This document shows positions 4,993-28,058 of a stretch of 64,000 nucleotides of DNA, piece after piece. Every line of letters begins with the position of its first letter. Within the stretch, counting starts at the first letter, position 1. The notes beneath the pieces are model-generated. The model was not told the origin of the DNA, did no database searches, and saw only the letters and a program-made list of their open reading frames with translations. The position numbers were made by a program, and so were the translations under genes. The stretch is from Alphaproteobacteria bacterium. Its GTDB lineage: Bacteria; Pseudomonadota; Alphaproteobacteria; CACIAM-22H2. Location: the NCBI GenBank assembly GCA_016793045.1, contig JAEUKZ010000077.1:1497-65496 (forward strand), written 5' to 3'.

Positions 4993-5913
4993 TCACTGCA
5001 GGTTGACCGCGACCTTCGGCGCCAGGATGTCGGCGAGTTCGGCCATCATGGCATCGAGTTCGCGGCGATCGCCGTCGTCAAGGCGCGGTCCGGCCGCACG
5101 CACATGCGTGTGCTCGATGACGCCGCGGCGGCGCAGCACCTCCTTGGTCATCGCCATCCGGAAGACCGCCTGGAAGTTCAGCAGCGGCAGCATGCGGTTG
5201 AACAGCGCCCGGACGCCCGCCGCATCGCCGGCGCGATGGCAGGCGAACTGGCGGACATGGAGTTCCGTCAACTCCGCGGCCGGCATCGTGCCGACGGCCC
5301 CGCGTGCCAGCTCGTCCGTGATGTAGCGGCCGCCGGCGCCGCCAAACACGCCCTTTAGGCGAACCGGGGCCAGGGCGAGCAGCTGCGATATCCGCTGGCC
5401 GCACGGCATCGTCTCCTCCTTGACGTAGTCGACCCCGGGAATCGTGTCGACCAGCCGCGCGACCTTGTCCATCGTCAGCGCCGATCCGAGCGGCGGCGGC
5501 GCGTTCTGCAGCACGATCGGCAGGCCGATGGCGGCGACCGCGCGGTAGTACGCCGCAATGCCGGCGGGATCGTCGCGCAGGCTCGCCGGGTTCATCGCCA
5601 TCACCGCCGCAGCGCCGACGTCGCGCGCCTGCTGCGCCAGCGCAATCGACGCGGCAGCGTCGCCCGCCGAGACGCCGACGATCAACGGCTTGCGGCCGCC
5701 ATTCGCGCGCGCGACGAGGTCGACGAGGTTGCGGCGCTCCTCCGGCCGGAGCGTATCGAACTCGCTGGCGACGCCGGGAAAAACGAGACCGTCGGCACCG
5801 GCCTTGACGATGTAATCGACGACGCGCGCCAGATCCGCTTCGGCCGGCCGGCCGTCATCGAGGAAGGGGGTCGGGACGATCGGAAAGACTCCGGACAAGG
5901 CGTAGGCGTTCAT
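4993..5913 (-). CDS. dihydrodipicolinate synthase (DapA) family protein, probable 2-keto-3-deoxy-sugar-acid aldolase/dehydratase
   Basis: 306 aa from MNAYALSGVFPIVPTPFLDDGRPAEADLARVVDYIV (DapA-family N-term). ATG at 5913 overlaps the SDR stop (ATGA). The longer 476-aa ORF upstream is a shadow. Confidence 0.85.
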   Translation of the reverse strand: MNAYALSGVFPIVPTPFLDDGRPAEADLARVVDYIVKAGADGLVFPGVASEFDTLRPEERRNLVDLVARANGGRKPLIVGVSAGDAAASIALAQQARDVGAAAVMAMNPASLRDDPAGIAAYYRAVAAIGLPIVLQNAPPPLGSALTMDKVARLVDTIPGVDYVKEETMPCGQRISQLLALAPVRLKGVFGGAGGRYITDELARGAVGTMPAAELTELHVRQFACHRAGDAAGVRALFNRMLPLLNFQAVFRMAMTKEVLRRRGVIEHTHVRAAGPRLDDGDRRELDAMMAELADILAPKVAVNLQ

Positions 5914-6767
5914 AGCTTCTCCTGCGGATCGGGCCATGGGGCCCGGCCATACCAGCGGCGGACGCGCGGCGACACCAGCGCCGATGCCGCGACCACCGAC
6001 AATCCTCCGTCCACCGGCAAGTCCACGCCGTTGACGAAGCACGACTCGTCGGATGCCAGGAACAGCGCCGCGTAGGCGACGTCGAGCGGTGCGCCGAGCC
6101 GTCCCACCGGATAGGCCTCGACGTTCATGCGGACGTCGTAGTCCGTCATTGCCGGCGCGAGCTTTTCGGTAACGACCAGGCCGGGCGAGAGGGCGTTGCA
6201 GCGCACGCCCCGCGGGCCGTACTGCATTGCGATCTGCATCGTCAGCGCGCGCACGCCGCCCTTCGCCGCCGTGTAGGCGGGCAGGTTCGGGTTGGCGAGA
6301 ATCTGGTTGACCGAGGCGATGTTCACGATCGCGCCGCCCTGTCCGTCGGCAACCATCGCCGCAACCGCGGCACGGCTCATCGCGAAGACCTGAGTCAGGC
6401 AGGCATCGAGCGTATCCCGCCACTCCTCGTCGCTCGTCTCCAGCAGCGGCTTCACGGCGTAGGTCGCGGCGTTGTTGACCAGGATGTCGAGCCGACCGGC
6501 TGCCCTGGCCGCCCCGACCAGCCGCTTCGCCGAGTCCGGCGCGGTCATGTCCGCAGTTACGGCCACGGCAGCGCCGCCGACCGCGCGGATATCCTCGACC
6601 GTCGCCGCCAGCGTCGGCCCGTCGAGATCGGCGGCAACGACATGCGCACCCGCGGCGGCGAAAAGCCGGGCGATCCCCTTGCCGATCCCCTGCGCGGCAC
6701 CGGTGACGATCGCGGTCCGTCCGGCGAGCCGGCCACGCACGTCGCCGCGGGACGGTCGCGCGATCAC
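5910..6767 (-). CDS. SDR family oxidoreductase (candidate sugar 1-dehydrogenase or 2-keto-3-deoxy-acid dehydrogenase)
   Basis: TGAAQGIGKGIA Rossmann motif, NNAAT, YTAAKGG active-site motif. Start assigned to the GTG at 6767-6765 (VIARPSRGDVRGRLAGRTAIVTG), which overlaps the permease stop as GTGA. The in-frame ATG at 6986 would add 73 non-SDR residues and overlap the permease. Confidence 0.75.
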   Translation of the reverse strand: MIARPSRGDVRGRLAGRTAIVTGAAQGIGKGIARLFAAAGAHVVAADLDGPTLAATVEDIRAVGGAAVAVTADMTAPDSAKRLVGAARAAGRLDILVNNAATYAVKPLLETSDEEWRDTLDACLTQVFAMSRAAVAAMVADGQGGAIVNIASVNQILANPNLPAYTAAKGGVRALTMQIAMQYGPRGVRCNALSPGLVVTEKLAPAMTDYDVRMNVEAYPVGRLGAPLDVAYAALFLASDESCFVNGVDLPVDGGLSVVAASALVSPRVRRWYGRAPWPDPQEKL

Positions 6768-7603
6768 GACTTCACCGCCCCGGCCGTCAGGCCCTGGATG
6801 AAGAACCTCTGTACCAGCGCGAAGGCGACGACGACCGGCAGCGACGCGATCAGCGACGACGCCATCGCGCCACCCCAGTCGTTGCGTGACTCCCCGAGAT
6901 AGGACAGCAGAAGTCCTGGCCCGACCGTGCGCAGCGACGGGTCGGTGATCAGCGTGAGCGAATAGAGCAGGTCGTTCCACGCCCACATGAAGGCGTAGAG
7001 CCCGACCGTCACCAAGCCCGGTATCGACAGCGGCAGCACGATCACCGTGAGGATGCGCAGCTCCGATGCGCCGTCCGCCCGCGCGGCCTCGATCACCTCC
7101 GTGGGGATGTTGATGAAATAGCTGTAGAGCATGTAGGTGCCGGAGGGCAGCGCGAAGACGATGTAGGAGATGATCAGCCCGATGCGCGTATTGAGCAGGC
7201 CGGCAGCGTCCATCAACGGATAGAGCGTGATCAGCAGGACGGCAAAAGGAAACATCTGCGCCGAAATCATCAGCAGCATGAGGGCGGTACGGCCGCGATA
7301 GGCGAACTTGGCGAAGCTGTATGCCGCGCAGACGGCCAGCACCGTCGTGAGCAGCGCGCCGAGCCCGGCGGTGACGAGCGAGTTCTGGAGGTAGATCGGC
7401 AGCTCGCTGCGGGTGAGCGCGCCGACATAGTTCTGGATCGTCGGAGCGATCGGCAGCGGGGACGGAATGCGCCGAAAGACCTCGGCTTCGGGCTTGAACG
7501 AGGTCGAGATCATCCAGAACAGCGGAAAGAACAGGAAGAATCCGATCGCTGTTGCGATCGATCCGAACACGAACTGAGCGCGGCGCGAGGCGAGATCGAG
7601 CAC
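6764..7603 (-). CDS. carbohydrate ABC transporter permease (MalG/UgpE-like)
   Basis: 279 aa, 6 TM segments, EAA-like motif region IEAARADGASELRILTVIVLP. Confidence 0.9.
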   Translation of the reverse strand: MLDLASRRAQFVFGSIATAIGFFLFFPLFWMISTSFKPEAEVFRRIPSPLPIAPTIQNYVGALTRSELPIYLQNSLVTAGLGALLTTVLAVCAAYSFAKFAYRGRTALMLLMISAQMFPFAVLLITLYPLMDAAGLLNTRIGLIISYIVFALPSGTYMLYSYFINIPTEVIEAARADGASELRILTVIVLPLSIPGLVTVGLYAFMWAWNDLLYSLTLITDPSLRTVGPGLLLSYLGESRNDWGGAMASSLIASLPVVVAFALVQRFFIQGLTAGAVKS

Positions 7604-7607
7604 GTCG

Positions 7608-8516
7608 TCACCCCTGCCGGAACAGCGAGCGGAGGTAGATGTAGGCCGGCCCCGCGATGGTGAGGAACCAGATAACCCCGACCGCGGAAGCGAGGCCGAT
7701 GTTCCAGTTCTCGAACGCCTGGCGCCGCACCTCGAGCGAAAGCACCGTCGTCGCGCGCACCGGCCCGCCGCCGGTCATCGCGTAGATGACATCGAACTGC
7801 TGCAGGTTGCCCATCGCGCCGAGCACGAGCGTGACGACCATCGTGGTGCGCAGATGCGGCAGGACGACGTGGCGGATCACCTGTCCGTTCGTCGCGCCGT
7901 CGATGCGTGCCGCCTCGACCTGCTCCAGCGGCAGTGCCTGCAAACCGGCGAGGAAGAAGGCCGAGAATAGCGGGACGGAAAGCCACGTCTTTGCCAGAAC
8001 GACCCCCGACATCGCGCCTTCGGGCGTCGCCAGCCAGGCGATCGGTTCGTCGATCAGTCCCGCGACCAGCAGCGCCGCGTTGAGCACGCCGTACTGCGCA
8101 TTCAGGATCCACGCCCAGATGAACGCGGTGACGGTGCTCGGCAGCACCCACGGCAGCAGCGACGCCGAGCGAATGATGGTCCGCCCGCGGAACGGCTGAT
8201 TGAGGATGATCGCCCAGGCGAGGCCGAGCACGAAGGTCGCCGCCGTCGTCGCCACCACGAAGACGACGGTATTGACCCAGATCGGACCGATTTCCCCGTC
8301 TTCCGCCAGCCGCTCGAAGTTCCGCAGCCCGTCGAAGACCGGCTGCGGCGTCATCAGCGTGTAGCGGTAGAGCGACAGCCGCAGCGCGTCCACGAACGGA
8401 TAGAGGATCACCGCCGTGAAGGCGGCGAGCGGCAGCGCCACGAGGGCGATGCCGAAGCGCGCTTCCGCGCGCTTCAGCCCGCCCACCTGCGGTGCACGTG
8501 CGGAGAGCGGCAGCAT
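7608..8516 (-). CDS. carbohydrate ABC transporter permease (MalF/UgpA-like)
   Basis: 302 aa from MLPLSARAPQ. Motif EAARIDGATNGQVIRHVVLP. ATG at 8516 overlaps the SBP stop (TGATG). Confidence 0.9.
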   Translation of the reverse strand: MLPLSARAPQVGGLKRAEARFGIALVALPLAAFTAVILYPFVDALRLSLYRYTLMTPQPVFDGLRNFERLAEDGEIGPIWVNTVVFVVATTAATFVLGLAWAIILNQPFRGRTIIRSASLLPWVLPSTVTAFIWAWILNAQYGVLNAALLVAGLIDEPIAWLATPEGAMSGVVLAKTWLSVPLFSAFFLAGLQALPLEQVEAARIDGATNGQVIRHVVLPHLRTTMVVTLVLGAMGNLQQFDVIYAMTGGGPVRATTVLSLEVRRQAFENWNIGLASAVGVIWFLTIAGPAYIYLRSLFRQG

Positions 8517-9805
8517 CAGCCGCGGCGGACGTCGCGCATGCGCTGCTCGAGCCGGCGCGCCATGTCGGCGATCGCCTGCTGCGGCGGCTTTTGCTGGAGC
8601 AGTGCCGCCTGCACCTCTTCGCCGACGATCGTCGTGAGGTCGGCGGCGTTCGCCCATTTGGACGGCTCGTCCGCCTCGGCGAAGCTGGCATAGCGCGCCC
8701 ATTGCGTGACGTACGCATCGTCGCGTACGCGTGCGAGCGCGGTCTTGGTGACCGGGAAGAGCCCGACCGCCTCGAAATACTTCATCTGCATGTCGTCGTT
8801 GAAGGCGAGATGCTGGACGAAGCGCGCCGCGTCGCCGTCGCGCGTCGGCCGCCGCCCGCCGATGATCGGCATGACCAGCAGGTGTCCCCAGGCGACCGAC
8901 TGCGGATTGTTGCCCGCGGCGACCACCGGATACGGCGCGGCAGCGACATACTGGTCGAACGCCCGCCCCTGTCCGCTGTTGTCGCGCGCAAATCCGCGCG
9001 CGAGCGGCGCATCGGCATAGAAACCGGTCCGGTGCTGGCCGAAAAGTCGGCGCGCGTCGGGCCGGTCGATGTCGCGGGCCGCGAGATTTTCCTTCATCAG
9101 GTCGACGAGGAACGACAGCGCGCGCACGCCAGCCTCGCCATTGACCTTCACGGCGCCGTCGTTGTCGAGCAGGCGCCCGCCGAAGGTCCACAGCCAGACC
9201 TGGAAGTCGGGGCTCATCGACAGGTTGTTCTTGGTCGCAAGCGCATAGGGCACCGCTTCCGGGTTGCTGCGCTTGATCGCCCGCAGCGCACCGACGAACT
9301 GGTCGACCGTGGTCGGGATCTGGTTGACGCCGGCGTCGCCGAGGACCTTGCGGTTCGCGACCATGCCGATCGATGCGGCCGTCCACGGCAGTCCGAGCTG
9401 CTTGCCGCCCGACTGGCCGATGCGCAGCAGCCCGGCGTCGATCTTCTCTTCCAGCGCAGCACGACCGAACAACTCGTTCAGGTCGGCGAGGTTGTTCAGC
9501 GCCGCGAAGGTCGGCAGCCAGCGCTCGGCGAGCTGGGCGACGTCGAGCGGCTGACCCGCACGCATGCGCAGAATGAGGTTCTGCTGCATTTGCGCCCATG
9601 GAAACCCGATGGTTTCGAGCCGCACGGACGGGTTCGCGGTGCTGAACGCGTTGAACATCTCGGTCAGCACCGGCTTGCTCGCCGCCTCGTCATGACTCCA
9701 GCCGATATACGTCAGCGTGCGCTGTTGCGCGAAGGCAGGTCCGGCCGCGGCGCCGAAACCGAGGGCGCTGGCGGCAGCGAGAAATTCGCGTCTGGTCGTC
9801 TTCAT
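8516..9805 (-). CDS. ABC transporter substrate-binding protein (carbohydrate family 1) with twin-arginine signal
   Basis: 429 aa from MKTTRREFLAAASALGFGAAAGPAFAQQ (RREFL Tat motif). ATG at 9805 is preceded by AGGAGG. Confidence 0.9.
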   Translation of the reverse strand: MKTTRREFLAAASALGFGAAAGPAFAQQRTLTYIGWSHDEAASKPVLTEMFNAFSTANPSVRLETIGFPWAQMQQNLILRMRAGQPLDVAQLAERWLPTFAALNNLADLNELFGRAALEEKIDAGLLRIGQSGGKQLGLPWTAASIGMVANRKVLGDAGVNQIPTTVDQFVGALRAIKRSNPEAVPYALATKNNLSMSPDFQVWLWTFGGRLLDNDGAVKVNGEAGVRALSFLVDLMKENLAARDIDRPDARRLFGQHRTGFYADAPLARGFARDNSGQGRAFDQYVAAAPYPVVAAGNNPQSVAWGHLLVMPIIGGRRPTRDGDAARFVQHLAFNDDMQMKYFEAVGLFPVTKTALARVRDDAYVTQWARYASFAEADEPSKWANAADLTTIVGEEVQAALLQQKPPQQAIADMARRLEQRMRDVRRG

Positions 9806-9840
9806 GGTGCGGTTCCTCCTCTTGTGTTCGTTGTCAAAGG

Positions 9841-10668
9841 TCAGTTCGCAACGGCGCCGTGGGTCATGCCGCTCACCAGGAACGGTTCGAGCAGCAGGAA
9901 CAGGATCACGACGGGAATGAGCGAGAGCGAGCCGGCCGCCATCAGCATCGCCCAATCGACGCTGTGTTCGCCGACGAAGGACTGCAGGCCGACCGTCAGC
10001 ACCCAGTTGGCCGGCTGGGAGACCAGGGTGCGGGCGAACACGAAATCCGCCCAGGCAACGATCCCGAGATAGACCGCACTGGCCGCGATACCCGGGCGGC
10101 AAAGCGGCACCGCGATACGCCGCATCGCGCCGAGTTCGCTGCAGCCGTCGATCATCGCGGCCTGCTCGAGTTCGTAGGGAATGCCGTCGAAGAAGCCCTT
10201 CATCAGCCACGATGCGAATGGCACGCCGACGGCGGCATTGGCGAGCATGAGGCCGAAGAGCGAGTCGATCAGGCCGAAGCTCGTGAACATGATGAAGAAC
10301 GGGATCACGATCAGGGTCGGCGGCAGCATCTTGCTGAGCAGCAGCACGAAGCCCGCGGTCTGCTGGCCGCGCGTGCGAAAGCGCGACAGGCTGTAGCCGG
10401 CGAGCGTGGAGATCACGAGGGCGACGGCGACCGACCCGAGCGTGACGAACAGCGTATTGACGAGCCAGGTCAGCAGCGGCTTGCGCTCGAACACATCGGC
10501 ATAGGCCTGAAGCGAGATCGCCGAGAGCGGCGGCAGCAGAGGCGGATCACGCGACAGCACGATGTCGGTCGGCAGCAGCGACGTCACCACCATCCAGTAG
10601 ACCGGGAAAAGGATGAAGGCGGCAATCAGGGTCGCGAGGACGGTCGTGCCGACGGGGGAGCGCTGCAT
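9841..10668 (-). CDS. carbohydrate ABC transporter permease (MalG-like)
   Basis: 275 aa, EQAAMIDGCSELGAMRRIAVP motif. GGAGGG SD before the ATG at 10668. Confidence 0.9.
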   Translation of the reverse strand: MQRSPVGTTVLATLIAAFILFPVYWMVVTSLLPTDIVLSRDPPLLPPLSAISLQAYADVFERKPLLTWLVNTLFVTLGSVAVALVISTLAGYSLSRFRTRGQQTAGFVLLLSKMLPPTLIVIPFFIMFTSFGLIDSLFGLMLANAAVGVPFASWLMKGFFDGIPYELEQAAMIDGCSELGAMRRIAVPLCRPGIAASAVYLGIVAWADFVFARTLVSQPANWVLTVGLQSFVGEHSVDWAMLMAAGSLSLIPVVILFLLLEPFLVSGMTHGAVAN

Positions 10669-10677
10669 CGAGCCCTC

Positions 10678-11625
10678 CTAGAAGAAGCGCTGCCGCAAGC
10701 GCGGCAGGGCAAGCAGAACCAGGACGGCGCACAGGACCATCAACATCAGGCCGAGCGCCGAGGCCGAGCCAAGGCGGAAGTACTGAAACGCCTCGAAATA
10801 GATGCGCAGCGCCAAGGTCTCGGTGGCGCCGGCCGGCCCGCCGCCGGTCGTGACGTAGACGATGTCGAGTTCCTTGAGCGCCCAAAGCGCATTGAGGATC
10901 AGCGCCAGCAGCATCGGCCCGCGAATGCCCGGCCATGTGACGTAGCGGTGCTGCGCCAGGGCCCCTGCCCCGTCGATCCGCGCGGCTTCATAGAGAGCAA
11001 GCGGTATCGCCTGCATCGCGGCAAGGGCCGTCAGCGCGAAGAAGGGGAAAGCCTTCCACACCGTCGGGACGACGACCGCGAGCATCGCGGTGTCCTGGCG
11101 GGCGAACCACGCGATGCCTTCATCCAGCACGCCGACGCGGCGCAGCAGCGAATTGACGACGCCGTATGAACCGTCGAAAAGCCAGAGGAAGGCGATCGAC
11201 ACGACGACGCCCGGCACCGCCCAGGGCAGCATCATGACGCTGCGAAGCCAGCGCCGTCCCGGAAAAACGCGGTTGAGCAGCAGCGCGAGCAGCAGCCCGA
11301 TGACGAACGCCGGAACGATCGCGCCGCCCACGTACACGGCAGAGCGCGCGAACGCGGACCACAATGCCGGGTCGTCGAAGACGCGCGCATAGTTCCCCCA
11401 ACCGACCGGAAGCCGGTCGAGGCGCGCGAGGTTCATTGTCCGCCCTTCGCGGAAGCTGACGGCGAGCGCCAGATAGAGCGGATAGGCGATCAGGAACACG
11501 ACGGCCGCGAAGGCCGGGGCGAGCAGTCCGTAGGCCAGGACCGTGCGACGCGCCGGCCACCACGCACGACGCCGCGCCGCAGATTCCTGCGGGTCGAGCG
11601 CGGGCATCGTGGTGACAGCCGGCAT
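10678..11625 (-). CDS. carbohydrate ABC transporter permease (MalF-like)
   Basis: Start taken at the ATG at 11625 (MPAVTTMPALDPQ...), 5 nt after the SBP stop. There is a second ATG at 11607. YEAARIDGAGALAQHRYVTWP motif. The upstream 300 codons of ORF 10678..12516 are a shadow. Confidence 0.8.
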   Translation of the reverse strand: MPAVTTMPALDPQESAARRRAWWPARRTVLAYGLLAPAFAAVVFLIAYPLYLALAVSFREGRTMNLARLDRLPVGWGNYARVFDDPALWSAFARSAVYVGGAIVPAFVIGLLLALLLNRVFPGRRWLRSVMMLPWAVPGVVVSIAFLWLFDGSYGVVNSLLRRVGVLDEGIAWFARQDTAMLAVVVPTVWKAFPFFALTALAAMQAIPLALYEAARIDGAGALAQHRYVTWPGIRGPMLLALILNALWALKELDIVYVTTGGGPAGATETLALRIYFEAFQYFRLGSASALGLMLMVLCAVLVLLALPRLRQRFF

Positions 11626-11630
11626 CGCGT

Positions 11631-12890
11631 TCAGCGCAGCGGGATCTGCCGCTCGAGCGTCGCTTGCAGGGCGGCAAGGACGGGCGCCGTGGGCGTATCG
11701 GACGACTGCAGGCGCATGACTGCCTGCGCGAGGGCGCGCGCGAACTCGTTGTAGTTTTCGCGCAGCACCGGAAGGGTCGGAAACAGGTTGCGCGCCTCCT
11801 CCGCCGCGCTGTTGACGATCCGCAGATGCGGCAGGCGCTCGGCCTGCGCCGCGCTCAACGCGCCGCGCCGCGGTGCCGGCGCGCCGGAGAGCACCGTGAA
11901 CTGCTCCTGCATTTCCGGGGTGATCACGAGCTTCATGAACTCCCAGACCAGTTCCGCCTTGCGTCCCGTCAGGCGCGACGACATGTGCAGGCTGTTCGAC
12001 GTTCCGCCGCTGACATACTGGAACGGCAGGCGGGCGATCTTGAGGCTCGGCCGAAGCGCCTCGTTGGCGCGCTGCGTCGCTGCCCACACCCAGGGTCCGT
12101 CGCGCACGAAGCCGATCTTGCCGTCGACGAAAAGCTGCCGCGACGCCTCGGCAGACTGGCCGGGGGGAGCAAAGCGGATCGCGCGGCGGTACTGGTCGAA
12201 GGCAGCGACGATGCGCGGGTCGGTGAACCGGTAGCGACCGCCCTCGACCCAGTCGAGTCCGAGGCCGGTCACCCAGGTGCCGACGTCGACGAGAATCTGT
12301 GGATGCTCGACCGTGGTGGCGCCGAAGCCGAACTGGCCCTGGTCGCGCCGCGTCAGCCGCTCGATCGCCGACAGAAACTGGTCCGGCGTCGTCGGCACGG
12401 CGAGGCCCGCCTCGTTGAGCAGCCGCTCGTTGTAGAAGAGAATGCTGCCATAGCCCATCAGCAGAATGCCCTGGGTCTTGCCGTCCCAGACCATCTCTTC
12501 GCGAAGGCCGGTCCACGTCTGCGCGACGTCGGTCTGCCGCAGCCGGTCATCGAGCGGAGCCAGCCAGTCCTGCGCCGCGAAGCTCGCGAAATTGCGCGTC
12601 GGCAGATGGACGATGTCCGGCGGGTTGTTGCCGGCGAAGCGCGTCGTCATCTGGTTGATGAACTGTGCGAACGGAATCTGGAAGAGGTTGACCCTCACGC
12701 CGGGGTTCTGCTGCTCGAAGCGCGCGATGACGGCACGCCACCAGTTGCTGATGCCCGCTTCCTCGGCCTGCCAGCTCGGAAAGTCGAGCGTGACCGCCTG
12801 CTGCGCTGCGGCGCGGCGGATGGCTGGTGCCGCGAGCGCGACCGATGCGGCTGTTGCGGCGAGGATACGGCGTCTCGATGTCGTCATCAT
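11631..12890 (-). CDS. ABC transporter substrate-binding protein (carbohydrate family 1) with twin-arginine signal
   Basis: 419 aa from MMTTSRRRILAATAASVALAAPAIRRAAAQQ. ATG at 12890 is preceded by GAGGGA. Confidence 0.9.
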   Translation of the reverse strand: MMTTSRRRILAATAASVALAAPAIRRAAAQQAVTLDFPSWQAEEAGISNWWRAVIARFEQQNPGVRVNLFQIPFAQFINQMTTRFAGNNPPDIVHLPTRNFASFAAQDWLAPLDDRLRQTDVAQTWTGLREEMVWDGKTQGILLMGYGSILFYNERLLNEAGLAVPTTPDQFLSAIERLTRRDQGQFGFGATTVEHPQILVDVGTWVTGLGLDWVEGGRYRFTDPRIVAAFDQYRRAIRFAPPGQSAEASRQLFVDGKIGFVRDGPWVWAATQRANEALRPSLKIARLPFQYVSGGTSNSLHMSSRLTGRKAELVWEFMKLVITPEMQEQFTVLSGAPAPRRGALSAAQAERLPHLRIVNSAAEEARNLFPTLPVLRENYNEFARALAQAVMRLQSSDTPTAPVLAALQATLERQIPLR

Positions 12891-13042
12891 GGCGTCCCTC
12901 ACTGGTTCTGGTTTGTCGTTCGCTGTTCGTGCGCGGCCGTGTGCGAACGCCATGCCGGTCCATGCGGATCGGCAGGCGCGGCAATGAACGTCCCGGTGGC
13001 ATGCACCATGACGGCCCGGCGTAAGGTGCCCCTGGTCATGGC

Positions 13043-14215
13043 TCAGTGCTTCACGACGTGCTTCCAGACGTCGTCGGTCGGCGCGACGCCGTGCCCGACT
13101 CCGCCCGGCAGATGGAAGAAGCCCCGCTCGCACCGCATGTCGCCGGTTACGTAGCGCAGGTTCTTGTCGAAGATCGAATGCTGGTATTCGTGGTAGGGCA
13201 CGTTCTGCAGCGCCGCAGCCGCGTGCAGGCTTGCCGCCTGGAACACCCCGATGCCGATGCTGGCGTGCGGGATGATCCGGCAATGGAATGTCTCCGCCAT
13301 CCGGCCGATTTTCATGAACTCGGTGACGCCGGTGTGGCCCATCTCGGGCTGGATGATGTCCATGCAGCGCCGGATGAATCGCGGCCGATACTCGAATGCC
13401 GTGCGCCACTCCTCGCCCAGCGCGACCGAGCAGCGCACCGCGGCAGCCACATGCGCCTGACCGTCGATATCCTCGGGCTGGCATGCGGCTTCGGCAAAAT
13501 AGAGATCGTGAAGATTGAGGCGATCGATCAGCTTGATCGCCTCCAGCGCCGTATAGCGCCAGTGCAGGTCGACCATGATCTTCGGCGCGGCGCCCAGGCC
13601 CGCCCGCAGCGCCGCCATCTCTGCGATCTCGCCGTCATCGGCCACCGCAGCGGCGAACTTGACCGCATCGAACCCCTTGGCAACCCATTCCTGTGCAAGC
13701 GCGACACGCTCGGCCAGCGTCGGCTTGGGCAGCCCCGAGACATAGGCCGGAATACGCTCGTGACGCATGCCACCGAGTAGCCTGACCAGCGGCATACCGG
13801 CGAGCCTGGCGGCAAGATCCCAGACCGCAATGTCGACGCCCGCCAACGCATCGACGTAGTAGCCGCCGAAGAAGCCGCGCACGCGCATCAGGTCGTACTG
13901 GTCTTCATGGAGAACGACCGGATCGCGCGGATCGCGACCGATCAGAAGCGGCCCGAGCAGGTCGTCGATGATCTCGGCAACCGCTCGCGGCGCCACGATC
14001 CCGTAGGTTTCGCCCCAGCCGACCGCGCCGGACTTCGTCGTGACCTTGACCAGGACAGACGTATCGGTGCGCGGATAGACGGTGCGATTGCCCTTGCGCA
14101 CGAAGTAGCCGCGCTCGTTCGCACTTTCGCCCGCCCTCAGCGCGCCGAGGTACGGCACGTCGCGCGGAATTGAGACGATGAAGGTTTCGACGCGTTCGAT
14201 CGTCTCGGCGCTCAT
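13043..14215 (-). CDS. enolase-superfamily (mandelate racemase/muconate lactonizing enzyme family) sugar-acid dehydratase
   Basis: 390 aa. N-terminal capping domain plus a barrel with KxK-like and metal-ligand regions (DLHWRYT, EEW, HEYQH). ATG at 14215 overlaps the upstream DapA-like stop (ATGA). Confidence 0.88.
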   Translation of the reverse strand: MSAETIERVETFIVSIPRDVPYLGALRAGESANERGYFVRKGNRTVYPRTDTSVLVKVTTKSGAVGWGETYGIVAPRAVAEIIDDLLGPLLIGRDPRDPVVLHEDQYDLMRVRGFFGGYYVDALAGVDIAVWDLAARLAGMPLVRLLGGMRHERIPAYVSGLPKPTLAERVALAQEWVAKGFDAVKFAAAVADDGEIAEMAALRAGLGAAPKIMVDLHWRYTALEAIKLIDRLNLHDLYFAEAACQPEDIDGQAHVAAAVRCSVALGEEWRTAFEYRPRFIRRCMDIIQPEMGHTGVTEFMKIGRMAETFHCRIIPHASIGIGVFQAASLHAAAALQNVPYHEYQHSIFDKNLRYVTGDMRCERGFFHLPGGVGHGVAPTDDVWKHVVKH

Positions 14216-15165
14216 GCTTCGGCTCGCATCGCTGCTGTGGCAAACGGGCCGAGGGATCGACTCATGCGCTCGACCTCGGCAAGGCCGAACGCGGTCGTCG
14301 GGAGGTCGGGCACGCGCTGGTGTACCGCGCCCAGGCCGAGGCGTCTCGCAGTCAGCCGCTTGCCGTAGGCCAGCAGGATAGGGATCGACTGCAGCATGAA
14401 CGTCACGAGCGGCAGGATCGAGGCGTGCAATGCTTCGGCCTGCACTTCGTCGTCGGGACGACTGGAGGTCAGCAACGCCATCAGCCGGACCTGAATGTCG
14501 AACACATCCGGCGCCGGAATCAATCCGACGCAGCCGCTGCGGACGTTGGTGATCAGTTCCTTGCCGCCATGGCCGCAGAAGACGTCGAAGGCGCCGTCCG
14601 ACTCCTCGATCAGACGCGCGACATTTATCGCCGGGCCTTCACCCTTGAGCAGCCGGACGTTCGCATGGTTGCGATGGAGCGCAATCAGGCCCGCGTTGGT
14701 CAGCGCGACGTCGAGATTGGTCGGGTTGTTCTGAATTGCGACCGGCACGCCGGCCTTGTCCGCCACGGCACCGAGGAAGCGCAGATACTCGCCTTCCGCG
14801 TAGCCTTTCGTCGAAGGCGGCTGCAGGATCACCCACGCTGCTCCCGCCGCCTCCGCACCGCGCACGAAGTCGACCTGGCCGCGAACGCTTTGCTCCGCGA
14901 CGGTCACCGCAAGCGGGACGCGGCCGGCGATCGCTTCGGCGACGATATCGACGATCTCGCGGCGCTCGACCGTGTCGAGCTTGTGCACCTCGGTCACCAA
15001 CCCGAGCACCGCAATGCCGGCAGCACCGCCGGCGATGCACGCTTCGACCTGCCGGCGCATCGCGGTGCGATCGATCCGGCCGTCGGCATCGAAGAATGCG
15101 TAGAGGATCGGATAGACGCCGGCAAAACCCGTGCGCGATGACGGAACGGTGACGTTTGGCGGCAT
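14212..15165 (-). CDS. dihydrodipicolinate synthase (DapA) family protein (second copy; KdgD/2-keto-3-deoxy-acid dehydratase-aldolase-like)
   Basis: 317 aa, MPPNVTVPSSRTGFAGVYPILYAFF...GIAVLGLVTEVHKL. AGGAGA SD lies 11 nt before the ATG at 15165. Confidence 0.85.
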   Translation of the reverse strand: MPPNVTVPSSRTGFAGVYPILYAFFDADGRIDRTAMRRQVEACIAGGAAGIAVLGLVTEVHKLDTVERREIVDIVAEAIAGRVPLAVTVAEQSVRGQVDFVRGAEAAGAAWVILQPPSTKGYAEGEYLRFLGAVADKAGVPVAIQNNPTNLDVALTNAGLIALHRNHANVRLLKGEGPAINVARLIEESDGAFDVFCGHGGKELITNVRSGCVGLIPAPDVFDIQVRLMALLTSSRPDDEVQAEALHASILPLVTFMLQSIPILLAYGKRLTARRLGLGAVHQRVPDLPTTAFGLAEVERMSRSLGPFATAAMRAEA

Positions 15166-15190
15166 CGGCCCAGCGTCTCCTCGATTTTCT

Positions 15191-15222
15191 ACATTGTGGA
15201 ACTTACGTCGATATTGTGGAAC
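15191..15222. promoter_or_regulatory. direct repeat aYATTGTGGAAC x2 (20-bp phasing) in the promoter region of the sugar-acid operon; candidate operator
   Basis: acattgtggaac at 15191-15202 and atattgtggaac at 15211-15222. The repeat sits 26 bp upstream of the DapA-like ATG, between it and the IclR::SMP30 gene stop. Confidence 0.35.
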
Positions 15223-15273
15223 ACGATAGGCGGTTCCCGTCGGCCTGTCAAACCGTCGGCGGGCACCGGAACA

Positions 15274-17025
15274 TCAGCCGGCGAAGGGCGTTTCGGGCTG
15301 GCCGCGGACCGTACCCGCGAGCGCAAAGATCGACCCCGACAGCGGCGCCTCCTGCAGCCGTTCGCGCGACAGGCGCGTGCGCGCCGTCGTGACATAGAGC
15401 GTCGTCAGCCCGCGCCCGCCGAAGGCGCAGCTCGTCGGCCGCGGCACTGGCAGGCGCACCACGCGATCGACCCGGCCCTTCGGATCGAACCGCTTCACCG
15501 ACCAGCCGTCCCAGATCGCACTCCAGACGAATCCCTCGCAATCGACGGCGAGCCCGGCCGGATTGCCGGCCTCGCCGGTCAGGTCGACGAACACCTCGCG
15601 GCCCTCCGCGACGCCGGAGGCGAGATCGAAGCGGTAGCGGTAGATCGTGCGTACGCGCGAATCGACGAAATACATCCAGCGATCGTCGGGGCTCCAGGCG
15701 ATGCCGTTCGACACACCGAAACCGCTGTCGATGCGGGTAACGCGGCGATCGGCATCGACGCGATAGAGCGCTCCCTGCGCTGCGGCTCCACCCATAGCCA
15801 TCGTGCCGACCCAGAAGCGACCAGCGCGATCGCAGCGGCCATCATTCGGTCGGTTGCGTGGGCGGTCCGCTTCGATTTCCGCAATCGGGCTCAGTTTGCC
15901 CGTCTCGGGATCGAGGGCCGAAAGACCGCGACGGGTCGCTGCGATCAGGCCGCCGGACTGCCGCAACGCGATGCAGGACACGAGTTCGTGCAGCGGCAGC
16001 ATCGGTCCGGGATTGCGCCCCGCCTTGACAGATCCCATGTGCGGATCAAGCAGGTCGACCCAATAGAGCGTCGACTGCCGCGCATTCCAGATCGGCGATT
16101 CGGGATTGAGGCCAGCATCCGGCGCGGCGCGTACGAGGTCTCGCGGTGGATCGCCGGCGGGTCGTGGCGGCGTCGAGATCGAGAACACCGGCGTCGCGCC
16201 GGCGTTTCCGGCGATCTGCCGCGCCGCATCCATGACGTCGCGCGCAGCGACGTGCATATCGGGTTTGGAAAGGCGAAAAGCAGGCAGCGAGACGCTGATC
16301 GCGCCGGTTGGCGCACCCGTGTGATCGAGAATCGGCGCGGCAACGCAACGTATCCCGGTCTCCAGTTCCTCGTCGTCGAGGGCGTAGCCACGAACGATGG
16401 TCAGATCGAGCTCGAGTTCGAGCGCCGTGCGATCGACGATCGTCCGTTGCGTCATCGCCTCCGGTTGCAGCCTGCTCACCGCATCTCCGCGCGCATCCGG
16501 CGTCGCGAAGGCAAGCAGCGCCTTGCCGAGTGCACTCGCATAGAGCGGCAGACGACGGCCGACACCGAATGGCAGCCGGAACGGCTGCGGCGCCTCGGCG
16601 AGGTCGATGATCAGGGCTTCAGTGCCGTCGGGAACTGCAAGATGGACCGACCCGCGCCACAGATCTGCGAGGCGCTGCATTTCCGCGGCGGCTGCATCGC
16701 GCAGATCGAAGTTGGCCCAGACACGGTGGGCGAGTTCGAACAGGCGCGACCCGAGCCGGTATGTCTGGTCGCGCGCCTGGAGCCGCACCAGGCGCTGGTC
16801 GATCAGCGCGCTGAGAATGCGGTGCAGAGTGCCTTTGGGCAGGCCGGACGCAGCCATGAGATCGGTGAAGCGAGGCGGCCGCGGGGCATCCGCGATCAGA
16901 TTGAGGACGCTGATCGCCTTCCCGAACGCCTGCGCGCCCTTGATGCCGTCGCCTCCCAAGTTCATCGCCATCGCATTCCGTCGCTCCGCGGCCATAGCAG
17001 CCACTTCATTGGAACTTTGTTTCAT
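15274..17025 (-). CDS. IclR-family transcriptional regulator fused to an SMP-30/gluconolactonase/LRE-like beta-propeller domain
   Basis: Single uninterrupted frame. The N-terminal ~270 aa form an IclR HTH plus effector domain (GIKGAQAFGKAISVLNLIAD...TLHRILSALIDQRLV...RGYALDDEELETGIRCVAAPI). The C-terminal ~300 aa form SMP-30/gluconolactonase (PESPIWNARQSTLYWVDLL...NDGRCDRAGRFWVGTM...SNGIAWSPDDRWMYFVDS...PDGLAVDCEGFVWSAIWDG). The 5' end is uncertain: ATGs at 17025, 16995 and 16971, and a TATAAT directly abuts the 17025 ATG. Confidence 0.72.
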   Translation of the reverse strand: MKQSSNEVAAMAAERRNAMAMNLGGDGIKGAQAFGKAISVLNLIADAPRPPRFTDLMAASGLPKGTLHRILSALIDQRLVRLQARDQTYRLGSRLFELAHRVWANFDLRDAAAAEMQRLADLWRGSVHLAVPDGTEALIIDLAEAPQPFRLPFGVGRRLPLYASALGKALLAFATPDARGDAVSRLQPEAMTQRTIVDRTALELELDLTIVRGYALDDEELETGIRCVAAPILDHTGAPTGAISVSLPAFRLSKPDMHVAARDVMDAARQIAGNAGATPVFSISTPPRPAGDPPRDLVRAAPDAGLNPESPIWNARQSTLYWVDLLDPHMGSVKAGRNPGPMLPLHELVSCIALRQSGGLIAATRRGLSALDPETGKLSPIAEIEADRPRNRPNDGRCDRAGRFWVGTMAMGGAAAQGALYRVDADRRVTRIDSGFGVSNGIAWSPDDRWMYFVDSRVRTIYRYRFDLASGVAEGREVFVDLTGEAGNPAGLAVDCEGFVWSAIWDGWSVKRFDPKGRVDRVVRLPVPRPTSCAFGGRGLTTLYVTTARTRLSRERLQEAPLSGSIFALAGTVRGQPETPFAG

Positions 17026-17220
17026 ATTATAGAACTCGGGGCAACACCTTGTGATCCGCGACCGCGGGCCATGTAGCGACGCCACGCGGCATCCGGCCAT
17101 TCTGTTTTCGCATGCGACCTGAGCGACCAAACGACGTATCGTCACGCCGCTCGGCCGCGACGTAAGCGATCACCGGTCGGTCGCCGGATCCCGCATTCAA
17201 GGACTCGACGTGAACACCTG

Positions 17221-18489
17221 ATGGACGGCCCCGCCTCAAATCGTCCGGGCGATGCGACGTCCTTTCGGCTCGGCACGTGGCTGTGGCCTCTCGTCGCCAC
17301 GCTGGCGATCCAAACGACCACCGCTTTCCTTTCCCGACTGGTGCCGACGATCGCACCGGTGCTGACGGCGGAGTTCGGCATGGCGCCGTCGGCGATCGGC
17401 CATCTCTCCGCGGTCTCGACGGTCGGCTCGATCATCTTCCTCGTCGCCGGCGCACCGCTGCTGCGGCGCGGCGGTCCCATTCGCGCCCTGCAGATCGGCC
17501 TCGCCTTCGGCGCCATCGGCGCTGCACTGCTCGCCATTCCCTTCATCGCCATCCCGGCGATCGCCAGCCTGCTGATCGGCCTCGGCTATGGGCCGTCGCC
17601 TTCCGCGGGCAGCGAGGTCCTTCAGCGCTACGCACCGAAGCGTCATCGCAGCCTGGTCTTCTCGATCAAGCAGGCCGGCGTTCCGCTCGGTGGCGTTTTG
17701 GCCGGCCTCATTCTGCCGGCGCTCGTCGAAGCGTTCGGCTGGCATTCGACGCTGATCTTCAGCGTCGCCGCGGCACTGACGACGATCGCCGCCGTCCAGC
17801 TGCTGCGCGAGCGCGTCGACGTCGACCGCGACCGCCGCCAGCGTCTCGACGTCGGAACCTTTTTCGCGATCGACAATCTCCTGCGGCCGTTGCGCGCGCT
17901 TGCGGCAGTTCCCACCCTGCCGCCGCTGATGCTCGTCGGCGCGTGCTTCGCGCTCAACCAGGGTGTGTGGATGGCGTTCCTGGTGACGATCGGCGTGACC
18001 GATCTCGGCCTGAGCCTCCCGGCCGCCGGTGCGGTCTATGCCGTTATGCAAGTCACCGGCATCTTCGGGCGCATCGTACTCGGCTGGGTGTCCGACCGGC
18101 TTGGGTCGGGCATTCCGGTCCTGCGATGCGTCGCCGTCGCGTCGGCTGCTACCTCCGCGGTCCTGTCGTTCGCCACCGCGGAGTGGCCGTACTGGATGCT
18201 CTGCGCCCTTGCCGGTGTCGCCGGCATAACAGTGTCGAGCTGGAACGGCGTCCAACTGTCTGAGATCGCCAGGCTGGTGCCGCGCAGCCTGATCGGCGAG
18301 ACGACCGCAGGGGCGACGATCCTGATCTTCCTCGGTTACGTCGTCGGCCCCGCAGGCTTCGCACTGCTGGTGGCCGCGACCGGCCGCTTCGACATCGGCT
18401 ATCTCACCGTCGCCGCGGTCTCCCTGCTTGCCTTCGGCGCGCTGCTGCGCTTCCCCCCGCGCCCGCCGGCGCCGGCCGGCGACGACTGA
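17221..18489 (+). CDS. MFS transporter
   Basis: 422 aa, about 12 predicted TM helices. It is divergent from the IclR fusion gene. Confidence 0.85.
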   Translation: MDGPASNRPGDATSFRLGTWLWPLVATLAIQTTTAFLSRLVPTIAPVLTAEFGMAPSAIGHLSAVSTVGSIIFLVAGAPLLRRGGPIRALQIGLAFGAIGAALLAIPFIAIPAIASLLIGLGYGPSPSAGSEVLQRYAPKRHRSLVFSIKQAGVPLGGVLAGLILPALVEAFGWHSTLIFSVAAALTTIAAVQLLRERVDVDRDRRQRLDVGTFFAIDNLLRPLRALAAVPTLPPLMLVGACFALNQGVWMAFLVTIGVTDLGLSLPAAGAVYAVMQVTGIFGRIVLGWVSDRLGSGIPVLRCVAVASAATSAVLSFATAEWPYWMLCALAGVAGITVSSWNGVQLSEIARLVPRSLIGETTAGATILIFLGYVVGPAGFALLVAATGRFDIGYLTVAAVSLLAFGALLRFPPRPPAPAGDD

Positions 18490-18507
18490 CGCCGGCCACT
18501 GGCGGAA

Positions 18508-18825
18508 TCAGGGAACGCGCACGTCGAAGAGCGGCGGATATTGCTGCGAGCCGAAGACGTCGTGCTCGCCCGGCCCGCCGCTCGGCCGCAGCCGGCGGAT
18601 CGTAAACTTGATCGCATTGGCGGGTTCGAACACGACGAAGTCGGTGATCCGCGCCGGCTCGATGCGAAACAGCGCCGCGACCGTGTCGCGCGTCAGCACC
18701 TTGGCATCGCGCACCCGCTCGAAGTTGGCGCGTTCGCGGAAGATGATGTCGAAGGTGATGTGGTCGACTCCTGCATTCTTGCTGCGGATCGTCGACGCCA
18801 GGTCCCGAAGGGTCGTTGCGCTCAT
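18508..18825 (-). CDS. DUF4387-like small protein (partner of the AtuA-like protein)
   Basis: 105 aa, MSATTLRDLASTIRSKNAGVDHITFDIIFRER...FVVFEPANAIKFTIRR. AGGAG SD. The ATG is 1 nt after the AtuA-like stop (TGAtATG). Confidence 0.75.
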   Translation of the reverse strand: MSATTLRDLASTIRSKNAGVDHITFDIIFRERANFERVRDAKVLTRDTVAALFRIEPARITDFVVFEPANAIKFTIRRLRPSGGPGEHDVFGSQQYPPLFDVRVP

Positions 18826-18826
18826 A

Positions 18827-20215
18827 TCAGACCGTCTCCTTCGCGCCGGCCGGCGCGACGTCGTGAAAGCGTGTCCGGAAAAGTTCCTCCGGGTTCGCGG
18901 CGGCGATGATGTGATTGAGCGTCCACTCATAGCCCGCCTTGCCGATCAGGACTTCATCGGACATCAGCGCAGCCGTTCCGGCCGTTCCCTTGACGTCCGG
19001 CAGGCGCGCATAGAACAAGTTGCGCGCAGCGAGCGCGCAGATCTCCTCGGCCCGCTTGCCGTCGGCGCAGACGACCTCGACGACGATCCCCAATTCGTGC
19101 GGCGCCATCTCCGGATTCGGGTCGAGCCCCTCCATGACCGCGTTGCGTCCGTAGAGATGGTAGTAGACCTGGTACGCGCCGCCGATCGGCCCAAACCGCT
19201 CGCCCAGGCGATCTTTCGCCCACACGATCGCGCGGTCGATATTGGCGATGGTGTAGGGGTCGCGCACGCCGACAACGGACAGCCGACGCTCGCCGACCTT
19301 CCCGGCACCCTCGAGCTTGACCATGCAGACCGGACTCTTGACGAAGCGCGCGCCCGTCGCCCGCGTCGTCTTGGGGTCGACCTGTTCGTAGCGGCATTCG
19401 GTCATGTCGACATAGCCGCCGGCGACGTACTCGCGATCGGGCGACGACCGCTCGTACATCGCGTGGCTGGCCAGCGAGGCCGGCGTGCAGCGCTGGCCGG
19501 GATGCATGGCGGTGACGAACACGTCGTCGCCTTCGATGCGGCCGAGGATCGACTCCTTGCCCATGAACGGCTCGCAGCAGAACGACGCGCATTCCATGAG
19601 CTTGCCGGCGTAGTAGGCTGTGGCCGGGGAGCTTCCCGCATTCATCAGCGGCGCCGCGAAGATCGCGCAGTCGCTGGAGCGCCCGGCAATCACGACATCG
19701 GCGCCCGCGCGCAGCGCCGCCTGGATCGGCTCGGCGCCCATCACCGCTACGGCACGAGACGTCCGCGACAGCACGTCGTCGTCCGCATCGGGGCGACCGT
19801 CGAGCCCTTCGATCCGGGTGCCGCGCGCCGCACGGCTGCGCAGATCGGACACCGCGATTTCCGAATAGATCGCGGCGAGCTTGAACGGCGCCATGCGGTG
19901 GGCCGCGGCGATCTCACGGATCAGCGCGACGAACTGGTCGACGCCGCGATCGGTCCCGGTGTCCGACGCTGAGCCGATGATCATCGGCACGCCGAGCTTG
20001 CGCGCCTCGACGAGCATGACTTCGAGATCGTGCCGCTGCCAGGCCGGCGGGCTCGCCTGTCCGTCGGCGCCAAGCGGATAGGGACCGATGTCACAACTGC
20101 CGGAATCGGCGATGATGAAGTCGGGCTTCAGCGCACATCCCGCTCGAAAGCTTGCCGGCTCCAACGGCGTGAAACCGAGATGACCGGTCGGACATAGAAT
20201 CTTGATTGCCGCCAT
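18827..20215 (-). CDS. acyclic terpene utilisation AtuA-like (DUF1446) family protein
   Basis: 462 aa. MAAIKILCPTGHLGFTPLEPASFRAGCALKPDFIIADSGSCDIGPYPLG is the typical N-terminus of the DUF1446/AtuA family. GGAG SD precedes the ATG at 20215. Confidence 0.85.
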   Translation of the reverse strand: MAAIKILCPTGHLGFTPLEPASFRAGCALKPDFIIADSGSCDIGPYPLGADGQASPPAWQRHDLEVMLVEARKLGVPMIIGSASDTGTDRGVDQFVALIREIAAAHRMAPFKLAAIYSEIAVSDLRSRAARGTRIEGLDGRPDADDDVLSRTSRAVAVMGAEPIQAALRAGADVVIAGRSSDCAIFAAPLMNAGSSPATAYYAGKLMECASFCCEPFMGKESILGRIEGDDVFVTAMHPGQRCTPASLASHAMYERSSPDREYVAGGYVDMTECRYEQVDPKTTRATGARFVKSPVCMVKLEGAGKVGERRLSVVGVRDPYTIANIDRAIVWAKDRLGERFGPIGGAYQVYYHLYGRNAVMEGLDPNPEMAPHELGIVVEVVCADGKRAEEICALAARNLFYARLPDVKGTAGTAALMSDEVLIGKAGYEWTLNHIIAAANPEELFRTRFHDVAPAGAKETV

Positions 20216-20288
20216 TGCTGATCTCCGTCGTCAATTTGCGTCCGCGCCCCGGGACCGGCGCCATGTGCGCCCCTCGGGGGAATCCACT

Positions 20289-20304
20289 AGCATCGCCCGT
20301 GCCA
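20289..20304 (-). promoter_or_regulatory. candidate sigma-54 (RpoN) promoter for atuA-like/DUF4387
   Basis: The minus strand reads TGGCACGGGCGATGCT. That is TGGCACG-N4-ATGCT against the consensus TGGCACG-N4-TTGCW, with canonical GG/GC spacing. The -12 element is about 75 nt upstream of the ATG at 20215, and a sigma-54 activator gene lies immediately upstream. Confidence 0.45.
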
Positions 20305-20331
20305 CGCCGAAGACGGCGCGCCACGCCCGCT

Positions 20332-27990: not shown

Positions 27991-28058
27991 CGGCATGCCT
28001 CCCGTTCCACCCTGTTGAACACAACCAGCGCGCTTCGCGCGCAATGCCACCGTTCAGC

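Follow-up and report, generated by a model that had tools for sequence, protein, structure and literature searches.

An IclR-type regulator fused to an SMP-30-like beta-propeller with an incomplete metal site, encoded next to a putative sugar-oxidation operon of an alphaproteobacterium

Transcription factors of the IclR family are regarded as two-domain proteins, in which a winged helix-turn-helix (wHTH) binds DNA and the pocket of the IclR_C domain senses the effector. In several other regulators the sensor is derived from an enzyme and is often inactivated, as in NrtR (wHTH plus Nudix), MocR/GabR (GntR-type HTH plus aminotransferase fold) and RpiR (HTH plus SIS); and the trigger enzymes, such as PutA, BirA and NadR, are bifunctional enzyme-repressors. 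Here we describe a gene from a 64,000-nucleotide stretch of the genome of an Alphaproteobacteria bacterium (assembly GCA_016793045.1, contig JAEUKZ010000077.1, positions 1,497 to 65,496; hereafter the window), in which a complete IclR regulator is fused to a complete SMP-30/gluconolactonase/LRE (SGL) beta-propeller. We rate it somewhat better than an even chance (probability about 0.55) that the product is an autoregulated repressor of a sugar-oxidation operon, and that its propeller is an enzyme-derived ligand sensor and not the lactonase of the pathway.

The fusion gene was found on the minus strand of the window as a single open reading frame (ORF) spanning 15274..17145, which encodes 623 amino acids (aa) when read from a GTG and 583 aa when read from the ATG at 17025. 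The stop codon is at 15274, and candidate starts are located at 17145, 17025, 16995, 16971 and 16965; the residue numbers used below are those of the 583-aa product. Neither a frameshift nor a stop was found between the IclR and SGL halves in the raw sequence, and all three domains were matched in a search with the IclR and SGL profiles of Pfam. The domain organisation is as follows:

16783..16920, minus strand: winged helix-turn-helix domain HTH_IclR (Pfam PF09339), residues 36-81, 1.4e-11, above the gathering score
16213..16719, minus strand: effector-binding domain IclR_C (Pfam PF01614), residues 103-271, 7.8e-40, above the gathering score, profile positions 4-172 of 174
16105..16212, minus strand: proline-rich linker of about 30 aa from IclR_C to the propeller
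15277..16104, minus strand: six-bladed SMP-30/gluconolactonase/LRE beta-propeller, residues 308-583

The SGL profile (PF08450) matched residues 308-549 above its gathering score (5.7e-82), over profile positions 2-246 of 246. The propeller shares 33-34% identity with stand-alone lactonases of known structure, and its sequence matches in the PDB include XylC (7plb, 3.6e-45) and regucalcin (3.8e-44). For the N-terminal half, the nearest NCBIfam models were BhcR, PcaR, KdgR and IclR, all under their equivalog cutoffs, with the top match, BhcR, reaching 162 bits against a cutoff of 350. An AlphaFold2 model built from a 46-sequence alignment had a pLDDT of 90.5 (about 95 in the propeller half) and a pTM of 0.83; disorder (pLDDT below 50) was restricted to residues 1-28 and 278-281, and the linker was mostly ordered. 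Foldseek comparison found that the propeller half superposes on SMP30 (3g4e, TMt 0.93, rmsd 1.6) and the IclR half on the Thermotoga IclR (1mkm, TMt 0.87), with 3mq0 and 8ejv also matching the latter; no solved chain spanning both halves was found by Foldseek, the best TM-score over the whole query being 0.48. Linker length is 27-31 aa throughout 121 family members, and this fixed length together with the pTM of the model suggests that the domains are arranged in a defined way relative to each other. The uninterrupted IclR plus SGL frame and the completeness of both modules, as claimed in the initial annotation of this DNA, were thus borne out by the ORF, the raw sequence, the Pfam profiles and the predicted fold.

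The wHTH and IclR_C modules are common to the fusion and the canonical IclR regulators (E. coli IclR, AllR and KdgR, Pseudomonas PcaR, TM-IclR 1mkm and BhcR). The fusion differs from these in having an extra, complete C-terminal beta-propeller of 280 aa, which the solved IclR structures lack, and in fitting no equivalog model.

The same three domains were present in all of the 120 best protein clusters taken from a search of a collection of 5.8 billion proteins, with coverage of 92-100% and identity of 41-90%; isolates of Acuticoccus, Microvirga, Bosea, Devosia, Sphingomonas and Aliiruegeria were among these matches. Of the best 80 loci in a scan of species-representative genomes, about 35 were full-length fusions, distributed over Alphaproteobacteria (Microvirga, Rhizobium, Agrobacterium, Ensifer, Roseibium and Chelatococcus), Betaproteobacteria (Burkholderia, Paraburkholderia, Variovorax, Roseateles and Limnohabitans), Gammaproteobacteria (Granulosicoccus and Steroidobacter) and one Desulfarculaceae metagenome-assembled genome (MAG), and the IclR and SGL halves were in-frame in 33/33 species-representative loci, complete chromosomes included. 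An exhaustive HMMER search over 1.84 billion representatives at 50% identity gave about 48 full-length fusions among the best 150, with identity down to 31%. A split pair of iclR and SGL genes was not found at any of the stand-alone SGL loci L034-L080, the sole nearby IclR homologue being 6 kb off in L051. The alternative that adjacent iclR and lactonase genes were joined by a sequencing frameshift in the assembly was rejected in view of these in-frame fusions, and we regard it as having a negligible chance of being correct. As judged from these collections, the IclR-SGL fusion is a large, old and uncharacterised family in public databases. The natural fusion proposed by the initial annotation therefore stands, whereas the notion that such a fusion is uncommon does not, given its occurrence in more than 120 clusters and about 35 species-level genomes.

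Searches of full-text literature found no description of an IclR regulator fused to SMP-30, gluconolactonase, regucalcin or a beta-propeller, and the preprint of Price et al. mentions an iclR-like regulator only with xylose. Family proteins are named in public records either 'SMP-30/gluconolactonase/LRE family protein' or 'IclR family regulator'; either name leaves one half unmentioned, and for many members the one that denotes an enzyme is probably a misnomer. Further SGL or IclR architectures were represented by P0153, P0195, P0262, P0224 and P0164. One of these proteins, of 970 aa, has three SGL stretches, and another is 697 aa long. SGL occupies residues 353-630 of a 630-aa protein whose N-terminus is unrelated, and residues 239-533 of a 538-aa protein in which an IclR half was not detected; a 665-aa IclR protein is extended at its C-terminus by a different sequence. 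In L081, a relative at 77% identity, the fusion gene is intact and the genes downstream of it (9820-19531) were called as short fragments, probably owing to frameshifts from a low-quality assembly.

The metal ligands of SMP30 are Glu18, Asn154 and Asp204, the latter two corresponding to Asn146 and Asp196 of XylC; the triad Asp binds the metal in SMP30, XylC and LRE and is the proposed catalytic base, and Arg101 and Asn103 of SMP30 serve in substrate recognition (PMC3551927, PMC8820113). Three PDB alignments revealed that the window protein has the motif NPAGLAVD where regucalcin and XylC have xPDGxxxD, with the following codon at the position of the Asp:

15556..15558, minus strand: codon GCC, encoding Ala490, at the position of human SMP30 Asp204 and XylC Asp196

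The Glu/Asn/Asp metal triad is thus incomplete, with Glu309 and Asn440 present and the Asp replaced by Ala490. Arg392 and Asn394, the equivalents of SMP30 Arg101 and Asn103, were found to be invariant in the 121-member alignment. Compared with the stand-alone SMP-30 lactonases (human and mouse SMP30/regucalcin, the Caulobacter xylonolactonase XylC 7plb and Agrobacterium AGR_C_1268 2ghs), the fusion keeps the equivalents of Glu18, Arg101, Asn103 and Asn154, and it shares with XylC a sugar-oxidation gene context; the differences are that the window propeller is joined to a transcription factor and has Ala in place of Asp204/Asp196. From its sequence, the propeller most likely derives from the SMP-30-type lactonase of the pathway and has become a catalytically crippled, ligand-sensing domain, and metal-dependent lactonase activity of the window protein is predicted to be weak or absent.

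In the column of residue 490, 106 of the 121 near-family sequences have Asp, 10 have Ala, 3 have Gly and 2 have Asn. A neighbour-joining tree of the near family gave D as the ancestral state, with five independent losses of the Asp, and placed the window protein in an all-Ala clade of 8 clusters (67-100% identity) in which E309, R392, N394 and N440 are all invariant. When the window gene was compared with that of L084, dN/dS was 0.049 for the IclR half and 0.077 for the SGL half. Both halves are under purifying selection, and therefore the Asp-less propeller is maintained and not decaying. Alongside D490A, the IclR half has the clade-specific changes L34F and E125G, and the propeller has K397R as well as L307N, which precedes Glu309 by two residues; F34 and G125 recur in a second Ala lineage (P0018, P0044). 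These co-substitutions may reflect coupling between the domains or merely shared ancestry.

There is a strong association between fusion to IclR and a degenerate metal triad. Among the species-representative loci, the Asp was lost in 4/35 fusions versus 0/47 stand-alone SGL proteins (p = 0.03). In the profile-aligned 50%-identity representatives, the triad was intact in 7/43 fusions and in 95/97 stand-alone homologues, that is, degenerate in 36/43 and 2/97, respectively, and the two stand-alone exceptions resemble fragments of fusions. On the neighbour-joining tree, parsimony calls for six or more independent changes from an intact to a degenerate triad, every one of them in a fusion lineage. 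Many fusions are without two or all three of the ligands (A/I/A, F/P/M and Q/A/I), while scaffold motifs remain and Arg101 is retained in most of these degenerate members. The fully degenerate P0139 (L092), the single context looked at for this class, is still located between two sugar ABC transporters and an enolase-type dehydratase; the loci of N-type and second G-type fusions (L091, L090) were uninformative or truncated. A metagenome scan returned mostly members resembling the window family.

Alternatively, the propeller might be an appendage that serves structure or oligomerisation, or a relic in decay, with IclR_C alone sensing the effector; the strongly degenerate propellers of distant fusions as well as the complete and highly conserved IclR_C fit this explanation. 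We consider it improbable. An omega of 0.077 indicates purifying selection on the propeller; within the clade of the window protein, neither the recognition Arg and Asn nor the two remaining metal ligands vary; Arg101 persists even in most degenerate fusions; and members from three proteobacterial classes have kept both the fusion and the length of its linker.

As read from the sequences, the stages of triad loss coexist in living lineages, namely an intact triad, one ligand lost as in the window protein, and all ligands lost. We put forward tentatively, at odds just short of even, that in the IclR-SGL family a lactonase was captured by its regulator and then repeatedly made into a non-hydrolysing receptor of a lactone or sugar. 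A sensor that destroys its own ligand is at a disadvantage, so capture by a regulator should favour catalytic death; holding the ligand without destroying it would explain the repeated loss of the metal site in the capturing regulators.

Candidates for a replacement lactonase were found beside some fusions that have lost the Asp, as would fit a catalytically dead propeller. In L089 and L001, both Gly-type, it is an MBL-fold gene. In L025, a Silicimonas MAG, a stand-alone SGL gene with its Asp intact (7191-7973) lies 2 kb upstream of a Gly-type fusion. No alternative lactonase candidate was found in Asp-type loci. The MBL-fold (Lactamase_B) gene is located between the dehydratase and SDR genes (6890-7669 in L089 and 16113-16850 in L001, the copies being 53% identical), and was seen at that place only in clusters whose fused propeller has Gly for the catalytic Asp.

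Pfam and NCBIfam profiles defined a tightly packed block of genes downstream of the fusion, with the following organisation:

4993..15165, minus strand: putative regulated operon
14212-15165, minus strand: DHDPS-family gene DHDPS1
13043-14215, minus strand: enolase-superfamily acid-sugar dehydratase
11631-12890, minus strand: CUT1 solute-binding protein SBP1
10678-11631 and 9841-10668, minus strand: permeases of the first set
8516-9805, minus strand: CUT1 solute-binding protein SBP2
7608-~8516 and 6764-7603, minus strand: permeases of the second set
5910-~6770, minus strand: SDR
4993-5913, minus strand: DHDPS-family gene DHDPS2

This is the gene set of non-phosphorylative sugar oxidation, which proceeds from sugar to lactone, aldonate, 2-keto-3-deoxy acid and cleavage. 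Most related loci pair the fusion with the dehydratase (49-66% identity), DHDPS2 (40-70%), the SDR and a set of solute-binding protein plus permeases. DHDPS1 had been taken as the conserved partner and was rejected, since only the closest relatives have it and DHDPS2 (4993-5913) is the family-wide gene. No other lactonase was recognisable in the downstream block by Pfam, and no second SGL gene was found in the window by tblastn, in agreement with the earlier claim that the fusion heads a sugar-acid catabolic block without a separate lactonase gene. An alpha/beta-hydrolase gene (3967-4824, plus strand) was considered as a stand-in lactonase and rejected, as it is conserved in no related locus. 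The operon looks composite, with two DHDPS genes of 28% mutual identity and two sets of a solute-binding protein and two permeases. On the other side of the fusion, beyond a divergent MFS transporter (17221-18489), a block on the minus strand (18508-21504) contains an AtuA-family gene, a DUF4387 gene and a sigma-54 activator (AAA+, Fis-type HTH); the MFS-AtuA-DUF4387 order is kept in the 90% relative L085.

The initial annotation had left three roles for the propeller, as the lactonase of the pathway, a ligand sensor for the regulator, or both; of these, the lactonase role is the weakest here in view of Ala490 and the fusion-linked loss of the triad. A bifunctional trigger enzyme, in which the propeller would still be the pathway lactonase despite Ala490 and the same polypeptide would repress the operon, with regulation via the IclR_C pocket or via catalytic turnover, has to be weighed at this point. 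It would fit a cluster and a 64-kb window without another lactonase gene, the retention of the remaining active-site residues in a propeller under purifying selection, and the full triad of most near relatives, where the fused propeller is the sole lactonase candidate of the cluster; L307N, close to Glu309, might compensate for the lost ligand. We nevertheless consider it unlikely, since the Asp is a metal ligand in all characterised members and is kept in 95/97 stand-alone homologues, and since triad loss is recurrent, fusion-specific and complete in some lineages, some of the non-Asp clusters having replacement lactonase candidates. The likeness to trigger enzymes lies in the predicted operator binding combined with a pathway enzyme domain in one polypeptide, and Asp-type relatives may work in this way; the window protein differs from trigger enzymes in its incomplete catalytic site.

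Two sigma-70-like promoters were found in 15100-17300, versus 0.2 expected, and each is accompanied by predicted operator sequences:

17026..17055, minus strand: sigma-70-like promoter of the fusion gene, ATCACA-18-TATAAT
17019..17035, minus strand: predicted operator palindrome GTTCTATAATATGAAAC, overlapping the -10 box and the first ATG
15223..15251, minus strand: predicted sigma-70-like promoter of the catabolic operon, TTGACA-17-TATCGT
15186..15222, minus strand: predicted tandem operator GTTCCACAATATCGACG and GTTCCACAATGTAGAAA, 20 bp apart, directly after the operon -10

The operon promoter lies within the 108-bp gap past the fusion stop codon and before DHDPS1, and footprinting against relatives at 71-90% identity found conserved blocks at both promoters, that of the operon being conserved in L084, L085 and L081. 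The group-1 consensus of IclR regulators is GKTYCRY-W3-4-RYGRAMC, and IclR tetramers typically have tandem sites spaced 19-21 nt apart (PMC8222616). The window sites share both the group-1 palindrome and the spacing of about 20 bp with the canonical regulators, and are of the GTTCCAY-W3-RTGGAAC type. The palindrome at 17019-17035 is the best match to the consensus in the window, with 1 mismatch, and is followed 20 bp downstream by an additional GTTCCA half-site, from 17015; at the same site L082 has the perfect palindrome GTTCCAATTTCTGGAAC and L081 has GTTCTATTATTTGGAAC. The tandem sites at 15186-15202 and 15206-15222 have 2 mismatches each and are among the four next-best matches, and L081 has the perfect palindrome GTTCCATATGTTGGAAC at their place. 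The repeats at 15191-15222 pointed out in the initial annotation were confirmed as an exact 10-mer direct repeat, GTTCCACAAT, found exactly twice in the 64 kb, 20 bp apart.

A scan of the window with the consensus gave 19 matches versus 10.7 expected, and 0/100 shuffled sequences reached 19; a scan with the simple GTTCCA-N5-TGGAAC palindrome at up to 3 mismatches gave no excess in the window (17 found, 12.3 expected). In a set of 32 fusion loci, the density of the palindrome near the fusion start is about 35-fold that found elsewhere. Operators that overlap the -10/+1 region argue for repression, and an operator over the regulator's own promoter implies autoregulation; we infer that the fusion protein represses its own promoter and that of the operon.

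Similar palindromes were seen elsewhere. The sequence GTTCGAGCAGCAGGAAC at 9885-9901, with 2 mismatches to GTTCCA-N5-TGGAAC, is located where a permease gene ends, about 80 bp before SBP2 begins at 9805, and could be either an internal operator of the second transporter set or a chance match. The sequence GTTCCACCCTGTTGAAC at 28004-28020 differs from the simple palindrome by 1 mismatch and is found at the 5' end of an SBP_bac_5 gene that is divergent from a DAO/FAD oxidoreductase gene; it may belong to a second, ordinary IclR paralogue (33729-34391, minus strand), which is 30% identical to the IclR half of the fusion. In L015 (Paraburkholderia sp. C35), two fusion paralogues are arranged divergently, head to head (7942-9606, minus strand, and 10001-11668, plus strand); GTTCCA-N5-TGGAAC palindromes that are perfect or close to it surround them, at positions 7606 and 7826 and, for the second paralogue, 186 bp upstream of it.

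The gene start was described as ambiguous in the initial annotation, with a TATAAT abutting the ATG at 17025 and later ATGs at 16995 and 16971, and all of these features were seen. Family proteins are 539-600 aa long, and most relatives begin about 20 residues after the ATG at 17025. This ATG lies inside the operator palindrome, and the -10 box at 17031-17026 puts the predicted transcription start downstream of 17025. Moreover, the 18 residues that follow it are not conserved in the 90%-identical L084, where the remainder of the IclR half is 95% identical, and are predicted to be disordered. Taking these points together, the true start is most likely the ATG at 16971 or 16965, and the resulting 565 or 563 aa would fit the family lengths:

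15274..16971, minus strand: fusion coding sequence from the likeliest start, 565 aa (563 aa from the ATG at 16965)

From these data a working model of the system can be drawn. The ABC transporter would import the sugar, which the SDR would oxidise to a lactone; the aldonate would be dehydrated by the enolase-type dehydratase, and a DHDPS-family aldolase or dehydratase would handle the product. A dimer of dimers of the fusion protein would sit on the tandem 17-bp palindromes over the -10/+1 of its own promoter and that of the operon. The sugar lactone, or an analogue such as the sugar or the aldonate, would dock in the propeller cavity, where Arg392, Asn394, Glu309 and Asn440 are kept; because the third ligand and catalytic base is replaced by Ala490, the ligand would be held and not turned over. 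The signal would then pass through the ordered linker of fixed length to the IclR core, and the DNA would be released.

Several points weigh against a non-catalytic sensor. In the near family 106/121 members are Asp-type, and for these an active pathway lactonase is plausible, no other lactonase being present in L087 and L088. The single Asp to Ala change may lower the activity without abolishing it, and L307N could partly make up for the loss. As neither the window nor the Ala-clade relatives yielded an alternative lactonase, the pathway would have to depend on spontaneous or residual hydrolysis. The intact IclR_C could be the sole effector site. The nominal Fisher p = 6e-24 for the association of triad state with fusion is overstated because the sequences are phylogenetically related, and the Rhizobium and Agrobacterium loci have no GTTCCA palindrome upstream of their fusions.

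Read as a sensor, the fusion resembles NrtR, MocR and RpiR in combining a DNA-binding module with an enzyme fold of the controlled pathway, in which many lineages have lost catalytic residues and the ligand-binding scaffold is kept. It differs from them in that its enzyme fold is a six-bladed beta-propeller, that the propeller was added to a regulator already having an effector domain, which gives three modules, and that intact, partly degenerate and fully degenerate forms occur within one family. The concept is thus already known; new are the propeller scaffold, its addition to a complete one-component regulator, and the occurrence of intact and degenerate forms together.

The family marks a conserved sugar-oxidation operon, and the nearest solved structures of its dehydratase, 4h1z, 2ppg, 2nql and 4dn1 (E about 1e-125 to 1e-146), are deposited with generic names only; literature searches by PDB or UniProt codes found nothing relevant on this dehydratase. 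The recurrent, fusion-specific decay of the metal site is an evolutionary pattern that can be tested. If the propeller is indeed an enzyme-derived sensor, the family would provide a natural series for studying the origin of pseudoenzyme sensors and a possible source of transcriptional biosensors responsive to sugar lactones. It would also be a new case, on a beta-propeller scaffold, of an enzyme turned sensor, as already known for NrtR, MocR and RpiR, and its widespread three-domain form would add a new, enzyme-derived second input module to the IclR family.

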